NCBI RefSeq assembly: GCF_014698145.1
Contig: NZ_JACJSM010000001.1
Coordinates: forward strand, 88,633-152,632
Direction: 5' to 3'
Source: Oscillatoria sp. FACHB-1406
Lineage (GTDB): Bacteria; Cyanobacteriota; Cyanobacteriia; Cyanobacteriales; Spirulinaceae
DNA: 64,000 nt
Each line of letters opens with the position of its first letter. Position 1 is the stretch's first letter. Of this stretch, positions 21,196 through 63,109 are shown in pieces. The notes beneath the pieces are model-generated. The model was not told the origin of the DNA. It made no database searches and was given only the letters and a program-made list of their open reading frames with translations. The position numbers and the translations under genes are program-made.

Positions 21196-21368
21196 CCGCA
21201 GGAGAACGCGACCCAATCGTGCTAAATTGAACGGATCTCGTTCGGTTCGGATGGGGAGCAGCCATTCGATATTAAAGGGGAAAGTTCGGTGCAAATCCGG
21301 CGCTGTCCCGCAACTGTGAGGCATTTTTCAAAATGCTAAGTCAGGAAGCCCGCCGAAACGATTCAATT
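21196..21368 (+). promoter_or_regulatory. cobalamin (AdoCbl/B12) riboswitch in the 5' leader of hupE/ureJ
   Basis: Conserved core AAGGGGAAAGTTCGGTGCAAATCCGGCGCTGTCCCGCAACTGTGAG followed by a B12 box AGTCAGGAAGCCCGCC. Both match the cobalamin riboswitch consensus (GGTGAAAATCC...CCCGCCACTGTGA...AGYCMGGAxxCCxGCC). Confidence 0.75.
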
Positions 21369-21401
21369 TGGCTTAATTTATCAAACATCTGCGAGGTACG
21401 G

Positions 21402-22101: not shown

Positions 22102-22136
22102 GGTGCGTTACGCTTCGCTAACGCACCCTACTTTTT
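22102..22136 (+). terminator. probable intrinsic terminator of hupE: hairpin GGTGCGTTACGCTTCGCTAACGCACC followed by CTACTTTTT; also a copy of a dispersed hairpin repeat
   Basis: 9-bp stem, 8-nt loop, T-run 5 nt downstream. The same 38-bp sequence occurs in reverse complement at 29761..29798. Confidence 0.5.
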
Positions 22137-22358
22137 AAGTGATGAGTCTTATTTTGCTCGATTACTTTAAAAAATTCCCAATTTAGTAGGGTGGGCATTG
22201 CCCACCAGCCAAGGCTTCCAGCTTTGAGGAATGCTCATTCTTCGACCCGTAGCGCTATATTTTGCTCGATACTTTAAAAAATTCAAATTTAGCGAGCGAT
22301 CGCAACTACAATTTTCACCCAAAAAGCTGGAACACAAATTTAAAATTTTGTTTCTCCA

Positions 22359-25519: not shown

Positions 25520-25551
25520 CTGTAGAGACGTTGTATACAACGTCTCTACAG
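25520..25551. repeat. perfect 32-bp palindrome CTGTAGAGACGTTGTA|TACAACGTCTCTACAG, equal to two abutted terminal inverted repeats of the MITE-like element at 29828..30064
   Basis: Exact palindrome. Its half-site is identical to the left TIR of the 237-bp element at 29828. Confidence 0.7.
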
Positions 25552-25571: not shown

Positions 25572-26486
25572 TCAATGATAAAGATTAGGCAAAATAAACC
25601 CTAAGCCCAATAAGAATCCACTCCAAAAATGGAGTTTCACGGCAATAAATTTGCAATTGCTGACTCGTTCCGGGCGATCGTGATTTTCGCTGACATGGCG
25701 GACGAGTTCGTAACCGATGGGGAGGGTAATAAAAACGATCGCTGTCCAGAGGGGAAAGTTGCCGATAATCAGTCCGATCGCGACCATCGCAAACAAACTC
25801 GCGACCGATACCGCTAACACTTTAGCACCCAGCGCCGTACCCAAGCGCACGATCGGCGATCGCTTCCCGGCAGCGAGATCGTCTTCGACTTGGTGAAAAT
25901 GGGAACAGAAGAGAATAATTGAGGTACTGACCCCGACAAATGCAGAAGCAAGCAGGAAGGCGGGAGAGAAGCTTTGCGCTTGGGAATAGTAGGCAGCGGC
26001 AATGGCGAGGGGGCCAAAGCTGAAAAAACAGATAATTTCGCCTAAACCCAAGTAACCGAGGCGAAAAGGCGGCCCTTGGTAGGTGTAACCGAGGGCGCAA
26101 CAGAGGAGAACGAGGGCGAGAACGGTGACATCGCGTTGCAGGAACGCGATCGCAATAATGCCCGAGATTCCCAATCCCAAACAAAGATTAGCAATCCAAA
26201 ATACTAAGGATTTATTGCCGGTTAAATTAACAACAGAATGGGCTTTATTTTTATCGATTCCTGTTTCCGAGTCGAAGACATCATTACTTAAATTAAGCCA
26301 TGCAATAATCGCAATCGCAGCCGTTAGAAATAGGAAAAAGGGTAAGTTTCGCCACTGTTGGGTTTGCCAGTTCGCGATCGCGCTTCCCACCCAAATTGGC
26401 ACGACAGCGACGCTATACATGGGCGGTTTAATCGCCGCCATCCATAATTTTTTATCAGAATTAGCAATAAGATTGGTTGTTGTCAT
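25572..26486 (-). CDS. menA: 1,4-dihydroxy-2-naphthoate phytyltransferase (UbiA prenyltransferase family)
   Basis: 304 aa, ~9 TM helices, UbiA-family Asp-rich region (NLSNDVFDSETGIDK) and the overall MenA pattern. It is paired with an adjacent isochorismate synthase. Confidence 0.8.
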   Translation of the reverse strand: MTTTNLIANSDKKLWMAAIKPPMYSVAVVPIWVGSAIANWQTQQWRNLPFFLFLTAAIAIIAWLNLSNDVFDSETGIDKNKAHSVVNLTGNKSLVFWIANLCLGLGISGIIAIAFLQRDVTVLALVLLCCALGYTYQGPPFRLGYLGLGEIICFFSFGPLAIAAAYYSQAQSFSPAFLLASAFVGVSTSIILFCSHFHQVEDDLAAGKRSPIVRLGTALGAKVLAVSVASLFAMVAIGLIIGNFPLWTAIVFITLPIGYELVRHVSENHDRPERVSNCKFIAVKLHFWSGFLLGLGFILPNLYH

Positions 26487-28718: not shown

Positions 28719-28790
28719 GCCGATGTAGCTCAGTGGTAGAGCACTCGATTCGTAATCGAGCGGTCGTGAGTTCAAATCTCATCATCGGCT
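28719..28790 (+). tRNA. tRNA-Thr (anticodon CGU)
   Basis: GCCGATGTAGCTCAGTGGTAGAGCACTCGATTCGTAATCGAGCGGTCGTGAGTTCAAATCTCATCATCGGCT folds as a cloverleaf with a 7-bp acceptor stem GCCGATG/CATCGGC, D-loop AGCTCAGTGGTAGAGC and T-arm GTGAGTTCAAATCTCAT. The anticodon loop is TTCGTAA. No CCA is encoded. Confidence 0.9.
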
Positions 28791-29272: not shown

Positions 29273-29626
29273 TTGGATTTTTATAAGATTCGATCGAGGT
29301 TATTAACTATGGATATATTAAAGCGTCAACGCTTAGAAGCAGCGGGTTGGAAAGTCGGAAATACTGAAGATTTTCTCGAATTATCCCCCCAAGAAGTTGA
29401 TTTTATAGAATTAAAACTCTCTCTTAGCAAGCATTTACGAGAATTACGATTGAATCAAAATCTTTCTCAAGAAAGATTAGCGAAAAAAATAAAATCCAGC
29501 CAGTCAAGAGTTGCTAAAATGGAGTCAGGAGACCCTTCCGTGTCTTTTGACTTAATCGTGCGAACACTGCTGGCGATGGGAGCAACTTATCAGGATTTAG
29601 CAACGGCGATCGCATCTTGCGAGTAG
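29273..29626 (+). CDS. higA: HTH XRE-family antitoxin (HigA-like)
   Basis: It lies immediately downstream of higB. HTH region LRELRLNQNLSQERLAKKIKSSQSRVAKMESGD. The true start may be the ATG at 29309 (MDILKRQRL...). Confidence 0.65.
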   Translation: MDFYKIRSRLLTMDILKRQRLEAAGWKVGNTEDFLELSPQEVDFIELKLSLSKHLRELRLNQNLSQERLAKKIKSSQSRVAKMESGDPSVSFDLIVRTLLAMGATYQDLATAIASCE

Positions 29627-29827
29627 TTTCTATTTCTCATCGCCCTTATAGGCTATTTATAGCACTAGACAACTCGATAAAGGTTGCATTAGAAAAATGA
29701 GATGATGCTTTGGATAGGTTGCCCTGTCCAAATCTATTGCACTACTTTAGCTATGCCACAGTAGTAGGGTGCGTTAGCGAAGCGTAACGCACCATTCATT
29801 ATCTTAACCGCCCACCTTATTGCCGAA

Positions 29828-30064
29828 CTGTAGAGACGTTGTATATATAGCAATCCCAAATAGGTTGTGATAAGTACGAGCGCTGAAAGCCATACGCAGC
29901 AACGCTCTATCTTCCGAGAAATATTTTAAACAATTTGGGATTGCTATAGCAGTTTTCAATTGGATGAGGTACAGAGCGATCCCCCTAAATCCCCCTTATT
30001 AAGGGGGACTTTTAAAAAAAGCGTACCTCACGCACATGAAAAACGCTATACAACGTCTCCACAG
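29828..30064. mobile_element. 237-bp MITE-like non-autonomous element with 18-bp terminal inverted repeats CTGTAGAGACGTTGTATA / TATACAACGTCTCCACAG and internal hairpins
   Basis: TIRs differ at 1 of 18 positions. Internal inverted repeats are TATAGCAATCCCAAAT...ATTTGGGATTGCTATA, GAGGTAC...GTACCTC and a CCCCCTTAATAAGGGGG hairpin. There is no coding capacity. Related sequences at 25520..25551 and 62925..63071. Confidence 0.65.
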
Positions 30065-30102
30065 GTCTTAAGAACAAGTTTATAAATAGTCTCTTAACGC
30101 TA

Positions 30103-32067
30103 TTATTCTGCTGTAGAAACTTTCCCATCCCCCGTTACCGCCGTCGAGAAAGTGTGTCCGCCCGCTTCTACTTTTAACGTTCCTACCTTCCAGCCCAAGG
30201 AAACAATCGACGGCCCGGAAACGACGCGATAGAGATCGAAATGCTGCAACCAATCGTAAACTTCGCCGTTACGTTCAATAATAGGAAGTTGTTCGAGAGC
30301 GCGCCAAGTTAAATTAAGGGTATTGCTATCACTCCCTTTTAACCCCACCGTTCCTTCCTTTAAACGAGCAAGATTTAACTCTCCCTTACGCTTCACCGCT
30401 TCCTTAAAACGAGCGTAATCATTCCCCTCTACGAGATCGCCCGTTTCTAACGCAAAACCGGCTAGTTCTTGACCCTTTGGGGTGGCTTTTATCCATCGTT
30501 CTGCCCCGTAACCGCGCGTCGCTTTCTTTTCCGGTATGGGAACGTCTGTATAATCATTAAGTTGAATCGGACGAATCGCGATCGCAACTTTTTCTAATCG
30601 CACAAACCAAATTCCCTCTTCAATCTCCATCTTCGCTGTTTTCGGCAGTTGAAAAAAGAACGGTCGGTTGGCCGGACGCAACCAAATTAAGAGATTGCGG
30701 AACTGTCCGATTTGGTCGCCCGGATTTTTCCCCGGTTTCACGCCTTCCTCGCCCGTATTGGCAACAAAAAAGTCAACGCCGCGCTGAGAATTATTGGCCA
30801 TGATTTTAAATGGCCCGACATCGCCATCGGCAAACCCAGAAACAACGCTGCCCATTTGATACGTCCGCCCGAAAAACTGAGTTTCCCAATACGCCGGTTT
30901 ATCCTCCCCGTCCTGCTTCCAATTTTCATAAATTGGTTTCGTCGCCATCATCTCGACGGGTTGCTTGAATTGCTTTCGCGCCAAGGCAACGACAGCTAAG
31001 GGCGGTCGGTAGCGACTGGTAATCATGTAGAGGGTATCGAGTTCGGGTTCGGGGTTGGGCTGGGGAACATCGCCGAAGTAGAGGTCGAAGGTACGCGCCG
31101 CAGAAGAACCGTAAACGACGTTAGCACCGCCGTAATCGCGTTTTGTCGGCCCGCCCCAACCGCCGCGACGATATTTAAGGGCAGCAGCGGTTGACATCCA
31201 ATCTAAGGCGGCTTTGGCGATCGCTTTGACTTCGGAGTCTTTGGCGAAGTCGTAGAGGTTGAGGTAGGGGGCAAAGGTGTGACTGTGGTAGTTTTCTGAG
31301 TCCCATTCGCCCATCCCGATGTGGTATAGCGCCCAAACGTAACGCTGGATTTTTTGCTTGTAGAGTTGGCGGACGGCTTCGTTTCCGGTTTCTTCTGCCA
31401 TGAGGTAAACGGAGGTTTCACGCATGGCGCGCAGGTTATCGGTGTTGCGCCCGTCTACCCACAATCCGCGCCGCTGAATCGACCAGTCTTGTCCGCTGCC
31501 ATCACCGTTTCCGTAAAGGGGATGGGGACGTTCGAGGGGGTCGCGTTCCGTCCATTTTTTGGCACCGTCAAACATTCGTTGTTTGTAGGCGGGGTTGAGG
31601 AAGGAACCGAAGAGGAAGTATTTGCGAATTTGACCTTTGAGGGTGAAGGAGAAGTAGTAGTCAATGCCGTCGGTGTGGGCGTGTTCTGGGGTTTGGGAGT
31701 CTTCTTGTTGGAGAAAGGCGATCGCGCGTTCTTTATTTCCGGCGAGAAAGTCGAACATAGCGCGAGGATAAGATCGTTTCTCGTTTTCTTGGGTCGTGTT
31801 CCCATAGGTTTTGGGGTTGCTGTAAAGCTGGATAATGGCAAGCGCGCGCTGCTCGAATTCGGCTTCGAGTTCCGGAGTCCAAGGGTTTTGCAGTTTTTGT
31901 GGAATGTCGGCCGGTTGGAGATTGAGAAAAGGCCCGCGATCGGAGGGACGCGGGACGATAGCAGCCGAATTTGGGGAAGAAGGGGAGAAATTGGGAGCTA
32001 TGCAACCGCAAAGCGCGATCGCGAGTGCAATGGCTGTATTCTGAATTCTTAATGTCAGCTTCCTCAT
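30103..32067 (-). CDS. large secreted hypothetical protein, probable lipoprotein (654 aa); possible polysaccharide-acting enzyme-like fold
   Basis: N-terminal signal peptide ending ...IALAIALCGC (lipobox-like), Trp/Tyr-rich body and no confident domain. Confidence 0.55.
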   Translation of the reverse strand: MRKLTLRIQNTAIALAIALCGCIAPNFSPSSPNSAAIVPRPSDRGPFLNLQPADIPQKLQNPWTPELEAEFEQRALAIIQLYSNPKTYGNTTQENEKRSYPRAMFDFLAGNKERAIAFLQQEDSQTPEHAHTDGIDYYFSFTLKGQIRKYFLFGSFLNPAYKQRMFDGAKKWTERDPLERPHPLYGNGDGSGQDWSIQRRGLWVDGRNTDNLRAMRETSVYLMAEETGNEAVRQLYKQKIQRYVWALYHIGMGEWDSENYHSHTFAPYLNLYDFAKDSEVKAIAKAALDWMSTAAALKYRRGGWGGPTKRDYGGANVVYGSSAARTFDLYFGDVPQPNPEPELDTLYMITSRYRPPLAVVALARKQFKQPVEMMATKPIYENWKQDGEDKPAYWETQFFGRTYQMGSVVSGFADGDVGPFKIMANNSQRGVDFFVANTGEEGVKPGKNPGDQIGQFRNLLIWLRPANRPFFFQLPKTAKMEIEEGIWFVRLEKVAIAIRPIQLNDYTDVPIPEKKATRGYGAERWIKATPKGQELAGFALETGDLVEGNDYARFKEAVKRKGELNLARLKEGTVGLKGSDSNTLNLTWRALEQLPIIERNGEVYDWLQHFDLYRVVSGPSIVSLGWKVGTLKVEAGGHTFSTAVTGDGKVSTAE

Positions 32068-62924: not shown

Positions 62925-63071
62925 ATTCCCAACTCCCAACTAATAGCTATAGCAGTTTTCACCTAGATGAGGTACACCCAGCGGGCGAATACCATTCGCC
63001 CCGTCTCGAAATCCGCGCCCCTACCGATTTGATTTTTGGAACTGTACCTCACGCCAACGAAAAACGCTATA
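62925..63071. repeat. degenerate, TIR-less relative of the MITE-like element at 29828..30064
   Basis: It shares GCTATAGCAGTTTTCA(a/c)(t/c)T(g/a)GATGAGGTACA and GTACCTCACGC(a/c)(c/a)A(t/c)GAAAAACGCTATA with the 29828 element, with a different central hairpin (GGGCGAATACCATTCGCCC). Confidence 0.5.
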
Positions 63072-63109
63072 TTCATTATTCATGATTCATCATTCATTAT
63101 TCATTAAAA

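Follow-up and report, generated by a model that had tools for sequence, protein, structure and literature searches.

The question raised by this locus is whether a 237-bp stretch of intergenic DNA bounded by inverted 18-mers is a transposable element in its own right. The preliminary description of the window (the whole 64-kb stretch of Oscillatoria sp. FACHB-1406 DNA analysed here) presented it as a full copy of a new family of MITEs with 18-bp terminal inverted repeats (TIRs). Our analysis indicates that positions 29828-30064 very probably represent four nested small repeats, all of known kinds, and not a single transposon (Table 1). The 237-bp copy is a palindrome, P, whose central TATA has been interrupted by A and B1, two independent MITEs that target TA.

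Much of what was first seen is real. The 18-mer CTGTAGAGACGTTGTATA is found at 25520-25537(+), 25534-25551(-), 29828-29845(+) and, with one mismatch, 30047-30064(-), i.e. four matches in the window against 0.00 expected from 100 shuffles. The first two overlap to give a perfect 32-bp palindrome (25520-25551), and the last two face each other around the 237 bp. This palindrome, the 237-bp stretch and the related copy at 62.9 kb are all intergenic, and the sole ORF overlapping the 237 bp is a TTG ORF of 51 aa. The DNA fold predicted for 29828-30064 (237 nt) reaches -51 kcal/mol (z = -10.4). Searches with tblastn also agree that the window encodes neither an IS630-type transposase nor a RAYT. The recognition of non-coding, mobile-element-derived DNA that includes MITEs was equally correct, as was that of a shared backbone with a variable centre.

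The surroundings are rich in repeats as well. Two copies of a classical GTAG-tagged REP, GTAGGGTGCGTTAGCGAAGCGTAACGCACC, are present at 29764-29793(+) and 22102-22131(-), and another such REP, GTAGGGTGGGCATTGCCCACC, at 22186-22206(+). The copy at 29764-29793(+) lies 35 nt upstream of the 29828-30064 composite, which makes the intergenic region as a whole a nest of repeats. HIP1 (GCGATCGC) has a density of 1.36 per kb in the window, which marks the DNA as cyanobacterial, and the 654-aa protein encoded beside the composite shows 100% identity to a protein of Oscillatoria sp. FACHB-1406. A scan of the whole window at Rfam gathering thresholds returned only a cobalamin riboswitch (21226-21371(+), 58 bits) and a tRNA gene (28719-28790(+), 74.5 bits).

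Table 1. Positions in the window of the palindrome P, the MITE modules and the associated hairpins
Feature	Coordinates	Strand	Description
Intact palindrome P	25520..25551		Core 25522-25549, GTAGAGACGTTGTATACAACGTCTCTAC; stem of 14-15 bp with TATA loop; 20 nt 3' of the stop of ORF 25572-26486(-)
Split P, left arm	29828..29847	+	CTGTAGAGACGTTG (29828-29841) and TATATA, read as the P centre plus a duplicated TA
Module A	29848..29946		MITE-like hairpin element of 99 bp; TIR TAGCAATCCCAAAT; placed at the terminal TA of B1
Module B1	29947..30048		MITE of 102 bp, derived from an IS of the IS630 family; ends TAGCAGTTTTCA-N9-GGTACA ... GTACCTCA-N11-GCTA; right flanking TA at 30049-30050
Hairpin C	29978..30009		GATCCCCCTAAATCCCCCTTATTAAGGGGGAC; forms the centre of B1
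Split P, right arm	30051..30064	-	CAACGTCTCCACAG, 1 mismatch; 38 nt 3' of the stop of ORF 30103-32067(-)
Module B2	62950..63069		Complete B-family MITE of 120 bp; TA at 62948-49 and 63070-71; centre differs from that of B1 and holds a GTAG-tagged REP-like hairpin (minus strand, around 63024)

The palindrome P as a stand-alone repeat

P is a perfect palindrome of 28 bp, GTAG-AGACGTTG-TATA-CAACGTCT-CTAC, often extended to 30-32 bp. An exact scan with the 18-mer, limited to one genome per species, gave at least 120 loci, and those listed belong to Nostoc, Anabaena, Trichormus, Nodularia, Phormidium, Floridaenema, Planktothrix, Coleofasciculus and others. In approximately 100 of the 120 listed loci the second arm abuts the first, which forms the same palindrome as at 25520. 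P is thus a stand-alone hairpin repeat with the intact 28-32 bp form as its basic unit, and the copy at 25520 has the usual form; its RNA fold is predicted at -23.6 kcal/mol (z = -8.3). The 18-mer is half of P, and the 32-bp palindrome, which had been described as two fused TIRs and perhaps a minimal element, an excision footprint or a recombination product, is the basic unit itself. Loci without an intact P carry degenerate palindromes, half-sites, chance coding matches or otherwise interrupted palindromes. Pairs of P arms at other spacings occur in L093 and L094, and other inserts interrupt P copies in L063 and L093. None of the 120 listed loci outside the window has a MITE-like body of about 200 bp between a plus and a minus arm.

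Across 120 instances each of the columns 3-30 is conserved to at least 93%, the terminal GTAG is (near-)invariant and the two outer positions on each side are looser. Variants stay symmetric; their centres read GCATGC or ATATAT, and their arms GGGAC/GTCCC. Being a GTAG-tagged palindrome within the range of 20-40 bp, P is in form a GTAG-tagged REP-like hairpin. Direct repeats indicative of target duplication were absent from the flanks of the 120 instances. Copies of P, A and B were counted in other genomes, plasmids and metagenomes and, for the FACHB-1406 genome, in the 64-kb window. There are two copies of P in the window and at least 10 in Phormidium sp. R1S1 (CP143273), whereas unselected metagenome DNA of cyanobacteria holds only about 2 per 0.87 Mb; viral contigs gave zero matches. 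A text search of the literature with the sequences of P, A and B returned unrelated primers only.

Among 85 intergenic copies, 52 lie between tandem, 29 between convergent and 4 between divergent genes, and at least one gene 3' end adjoins 81 of the 85. The nearest stop codon is a median of 34 nt away. Both window copies follow the same pattern (Table 1). Seventeen further copies are intragenic.

Two arrangements of P deserve a separate description. Permanent residence of P within outer palindromes was considered and rejected, since only about 10% of copies extend by at least 6 bp (1% under the null). This fraction is exactly centred in a longer perfect palindrome and includes a P inside a P-like palindrome; examples are found in L047 (2895-2962), L061 (6225-6285), L096 (1808-1862) and L024 (1855-1905). 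Such centring suggests either that template switching extends palindromes or that P inserts at the tips of hairpins. In addition, half-sites of P are repeated in tandem right beside a full palindrome, with periods of 18, 20, 23 or 28 bp, and these arrays have an iteron-like look (L117 1010-1141, L089 5506-5606, L041 2151-2238, L054 4765-4832, L062 4931-4982). Possible origins of the arrays include slippage and repeated half-insertion.

Dispersal of P: mobile hairpin or host element

Some copies of P are located in frame in the adenylation domains of NRPS genes, in the loop from NPF(D/N)N to LYKTGD, where they encode AVETLYTTSL (L014 6486, L015 2831, L049 5177, L021 5303, L109 5412). Homologous NRPS modules without P were compared at L109 (~2114), L100 (~2745) and L047 (~2057-2120). 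In the orthologous NRPS module of [Phormidium] sp. LEGE 05292 the same spot is taken by another GTAG...CTAC palindrome, GTAGGGGCGGGTTT...AAACCCGCCCCTAC. One plasmid copy of P lies within a type I PKS gene (H60).

P was also detected outside cyanobacteria. Copies identical at 32/32 positions are present in Runella defluvii DSM 17976 (L055 1158-1189) and in an Anaerolineae MAG (L072 1943-1974), and a copy with 30/32 identities in a Chloroflexales MAG (L031 394-425). The DNA of these three loci has no HIP1 and a GC content of 46-66%. P follows the stop codon by 5 nt in L055 and by 34 nt in L072, which has additional half-sites beside P. The occurrence in Bacteroidota and Chloroflexota suggests transfer between phyla.

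No RAYT was found by tblastn in about 1 Mb of P-bearing DNA with eight RAYT queries, seven from the supplement of Di Nocera et al. and one from Gloeocapsa. A weak RAYT match in L002 proved to be due to chance, and the RAYT copy of the Gloeocapsa plasmid is broken by a stop codon. Two cyanobacterial RAYTs, in L243 and L173, carry GTAG REP flanks that are not P. These flanking REPs, GTAGGATGCGTTA... and GTAGGTTGGGTTGAGGAACGAAACCCAAC, are positioned at L243 540-580 and 1255-1310 and at L173 11118-11150 and 11785-11870. Together with their own GTAG REPs, these two RAYT genes provide a reference for RAYT-REP pairing in cyanobacteria. When ORFs within 1.5 kb of P were clustered over the 120 listed loci (~1 Mb of flanks), no transposase family emerged, and the clusters reflected only synteny and NRPS paralogues.

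Our leading, still tentative, explanation is that P is dispersed by a RAYT-like HUH enzyme acting on its GTAG-tagged hairpin. It is rather unlikely that P is mainly a cis-element of the host, and not mobile DNA, with the MITE insertions into it being incidental. Several features nevertheless speak for a host element: the sequence is nearly invariant across orders, and P sits a median of 34 nt past stop codons and is scarce between divergent genes (4/85). In a lenient scan the copy at 25520 is terminator-like on both strands. T-rich tails, on one side or both, accompany 54% of P copies and 26% of random positions, the latter being unmatched for intergenic composition. The 11-6-11 layout also recalls the core sites of recombinases. 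Candidate roles would be those of a bidirectional terminator, a stabiliser of mRNA 3' ends or a binding site for a conserved protein. However, 17 copies lie in ORFs, mostly in in-frame loops of NRPS A-domains, and homologous modules have no P or a different GTAG...CTAC palindrome; identical copies reside in Runella and in Chloroflexota MAGs; and P is nested in P-like palindromes, with half-sites in tandem arrays. These habits of entering ORFs, crossing phyla and nesting point to dispersing DNA. The two views are compatible, as REPs are both, and the position of P is compatible with a role for the host as a 3' hairpin.

Quite unlikely, in our opinion, is a variant of the mobile reading in which P and its sister GTAG...CTAC palindromes (e.g. 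GTAGGGGCGGG...CCCGCCCCTAC) would be a class of tiny hairpin elements whose mechanism of spread has yet to be linked to an enzyme. It draws on the lack of target duplication and the frequent landing at the exact centre of other palindromes, on sites that are either tens of bases past stop codons or in-frame NRPS loops, and on the identical 32-mers of cyanobacteria, Runella (Bacteroidota) and Chloroflexota. Dispersal by a RAYT-like enzyme remains the reading that we prefer.

Two MITE families and the make-up of the 237 bp

The interior of the split P consists of two modules with separate distributions. The backbone GCTATAGCAGTTTTCA...GAGGTACA / GTACCTCACGC...GAAAAACGCTATA is common to 29943-30050 and 62946-63071, the centres being different, and defines module B. 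The pattern TATAGCARTTWTCA-N9-GGTACA was recovered from at least 120 metagenome contigs; viral contigs yielded no match to B. Copies close with GTACCTCA-N~12-GCTATA and have a modal length of 95-109 bp (range 95-170 bp). Their centres are mutually unrelated in sequence, and the copies contain no ORF.

The origin of B is indicated by a metagenome contig (L149) that carries a 1029-bp element (183-1211) with B ends, TATAGCAATTATCA-N9-GGTACAG ... CTGTACCTCA-N~12-GCTATA. The transposase gene of this element carries a frameshift; its two ORFs match HTH_Tnp_IS630 (PF01710) and DDE_3 (PF13358; E = 1.6e-34), and they align with 4-125 and 147-297 of NF033545, the NCBIfam entry "IS630 family transposase". 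As B has the same ends, it has been derived by deletion from an IS of the IS630 family, and the backbone is the pair of ~30-bp ends of the latter. Transposases of the IS630/Tc1 type, which have a DDE motif, insert at TA and duplicate it. A TA follows the right end of B in 19 of 21 copies, compared with a background TA frequency of 8%, and both window copies are flanked by TA; this evidence comes from flanks, as no filled/empty pair was found for B. Short, non-coding and multicopy, with TIRs of the IS630 type and TA flanks, B has the properties of a MITE. L169 was set aside, as it holds a decayed DDE_3 remnant and no ORF.

B2 had been described as a TIR-less, decayed relative of the 237-bp copy. 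The shared backbone and the different centre are confirmed, but B2 is intact and has its own TIRs of ~30 bp. B is also found without P elsewhere, as two copies with the same centre as B1 on plasmids of Cyanobacterium sp. HL-69 illustrate in addition to B2. The central hairpin of B2, GTAGGGGCGCGG...GGGCGAATGGTATTCGCCC (62985-63030, minus strand), is a REP within a MITE; the nest at 29.8 kb has the opposite order, with MITEs in a REP. Directly 3' of B2, at 63072-63106, there are heptamer-type repeats (TTCATTA/TTCATGA), which also follow metagenome copies of B in the right flanks of L136, L172 and L240. Hairpin C, besides being the centre of one B subfamily, occurs without B in L041, L045, L048, L050, L060, L075 and many cyanobacterial plasmids. 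Its hosts include Synechocystis, Picosynechococcus, Nostoc, Leptolyngbya and others, sometimes with tandem arrays (L045 5230-5320, L048 6750-6952, L050 1317-1418; plasmid matches H3-H25).

Module A has a pair of 16-bp TIRs (29848/29946) that begin with TAGCAAT. Relatives with A-type TIRs were detected in Nostocales genomes and metagenomes (L057, L104, L116, L127, L132, L143, L219). In Nostoc spongiaeforme (L057) a 150-bp relative, TAGCAGTCCTAAAT...ATTTAGGATTGCTA, occupies a site that is empty, GAATTTATATATTAC, in two other Nostoc species (L039, L073), and removal of the element leaves one TA more than at the empty sites. This is direct evidence that the A-type element is mobile and duplicates its TA target, and TIRs together with filled and empty sites characterise the A family as TA-duplicating MITEs. 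The search for a cognate IS of A found none; in L116, a TAGC...GCTA pair of 1274 bp was a false lead and not an IS. Both A and B may be mobilised by an IS630 transposase that acts in trans from another place in the genome. Two unrelated contigs of a single metagenome assembly (L127 2950-3140; L132, minus strand, around 12284) have an A-type element whose right end directly adjoins the left end of a B-type element, which is also the arrangement in the window (29933-29960). This may reflect either a preference of A-type elements for the TA at the ends of B or the movement of A-B composites as single units.

The junctions of the composite read GTTG-TATATA-[A: TAGCAATCC...GGATTGCTA]-[B1: TAGCAG...CGCTA]-TA-CAAC, and the sequences across the P-arm/A/B joints are GTTGTATATATAGCAATCCC and AAACGCTATACAACGTC. 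They can be accounted for in two steps. An intact P would have stood ~38 nt past the stop codon of a 654-aa gene. B1 would have entered the second TA of the P centre, GTTG-TATA-CAAC, with duplication of the TA, and A would then have entered the first TA of the B1 TIR, again with TA duplication, to produce the observed junctions. This order of insertion is the one we infer, and it falls short of proof because the TA runs permit parses shifted by 2 bp. B2 would have arisen separately, by insertion of another member of the B family. The centres would vary as the MITE fillers differ and have been colonised by small hairpins (C in B1, the GTAG hairpin in B2).

Interruption of P is known from other loci. 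Floridaenema aerugineum (L061) has an intact P at a site where the orthologous copy of F. flaviceps (L063) is split by a different insert of ~125 bp, which demonstrates that P can be interrupted in this manner. In Trichormus (L051) the GTTGTATATATAGC junction likewise connects a P arm with another B-like TAGC element. As 0/125 listed B copies outside the window lie in P, the insertion of B1 is best explained by a generic IS630-type preference for TA and not by recognition of P. P, A and B are all missing 3' of the orthologous gene in the nearest relatives, and the elements of the nest are therefore lineage-specific, on the basis of homologues with 71-75% aa identity whose intergenic DNA is unalignable with the window.

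It is, by comparison, very improbable that the 237 bp belong to a single MITE family with 18-bp TIRs, with the palindrome as its minimal, solo or footprint form and the 62.9-kb copy as a decayed member. The near-perfect inverted 18-mers around a non-coding and strongly folding body of 237 bp make this view attractive. However, approximately 100 of 120 listed loci hold the intact palindrome and none of the others has arms around a MITE-like body of ~200 bp, so that the architecture is unique among them. The flanks of 29828-30064, gccgaa / gtctta, contain no direct repeat; the interior is made of two elements with their own TIRs, TA flanks and separate distributions; and in a plasmid search no match covered more than 45% of the 237 bp. 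With no further copies of the architecture, no target-site duplication and B ends that match those of an IS of a known type, the proposed new family does not stand.

Hardly credible at all is a structured non-coding RNA gene in the 237-nt stretch or in module B: the predicted folds are very stable and distant cyanobacteria share the outer and inner stems of B, but these stems are the TIRs of the IS630-family IS, the B centres are unrelated in sequence, hundreds of TA-flanked B copies occupy unrelated sites, no Rfam family reached its threshold (the best, RsaF, scored 29.9 bits, the gathering score being 60) and an E-value Rfam scan of 29600-30200 gave nothing credible.

Relation to known systems

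All components of the nest can be assigned to known kinds, namely a REP-like hairpin, IS630-derived MITEs and small nested hairpins. For the last of these, Elhai et al. in 2008 reportedly described SDR, small hairpin repeats nested in other repeats of Nostoc and Anabaena, which are said to occur inside one another and within MITEs, heptamer arrays and genes. The nested hairpins of the window seem similar to SDR by description. Nested small elements gather in the intergenic 3' regions of filamentous cyanobacteria, and the locus advises caution in annotation, since inverted arms around a hairpin-rich body may represent an interrupted palindrome and not the TIRs of a MITE. It also offers a clean case of IS630-type MITEs targeting the TA-rich loop of a REP-like hairpin, and defines a very abundant MITE family, B, along with the type of its parent IS. 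P itself is of some interest owing to its conservation across orders and phyla, its in-frame copies in NRPS genes and the fact that no linked transposase was found.

Among the repeats described by Di Nocera, De Gregorio & Rocco (2013, BMC Genomics 14:522, PMC3733652), GTAG REP families 12, 15 and 16 are those reported there from Anabaena, Nostoc and Cyanothece, and P is set beside them by description, not by sequence. As GTAG REPs are portrayed in that paper, P resembles them in being an extragenic palindrome that starts from GTAG near gene 3' ends, in its occasional in-frame intragenic copies and in its variants with compensatory changes. The same paper mentions REPs of A. variabilis nested in long TATAG...CTATA palindromes, an arrangement into which the REP-in-MITE of B2 would fit. 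P differs from GTAG REPs in that its tag is on both strands, and hence paired and not single-stranded, and in that it is near-invariant across orders and phyla, yet low-copy in most genomes. Compared with GTAG REPs and with the REPIN/RAYT systems of Bertels & Rainey (2011, PMC3116915), P also lacks the doublet of hairpins, and no RAYT was found with P at its flanks.

Modules A and B resemble MITEs of the class of Nezha, a cyanobacterial MITE derived from the IS630 family (Zhou et al. 2008, as summarised in PMC3184786). In the terms of that summary they share a length of 100-150 bp, the absence of coding sequence, stable hairpins, AT-rich targets and TA duplication. B is further comparable to this class, as outlined there, by TIRs that match an IS630-family IS, and A by filled and empty sites between related Nostoc species. 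The likeness of A and B to Nezha and ISNpu3 is one of description in that source, not of sequence.

The use of a REP-type hairpin as a landing site for a transposable element has a counterpart in IS1397 and IS621, which insert into enterobacterial REPs (cited in PMC3184786). As presented in that source, IS1397 and IS621 recognise REPs specifically, whereas the entry of B into P is best seen as generic TA targeting of its TATA loop.
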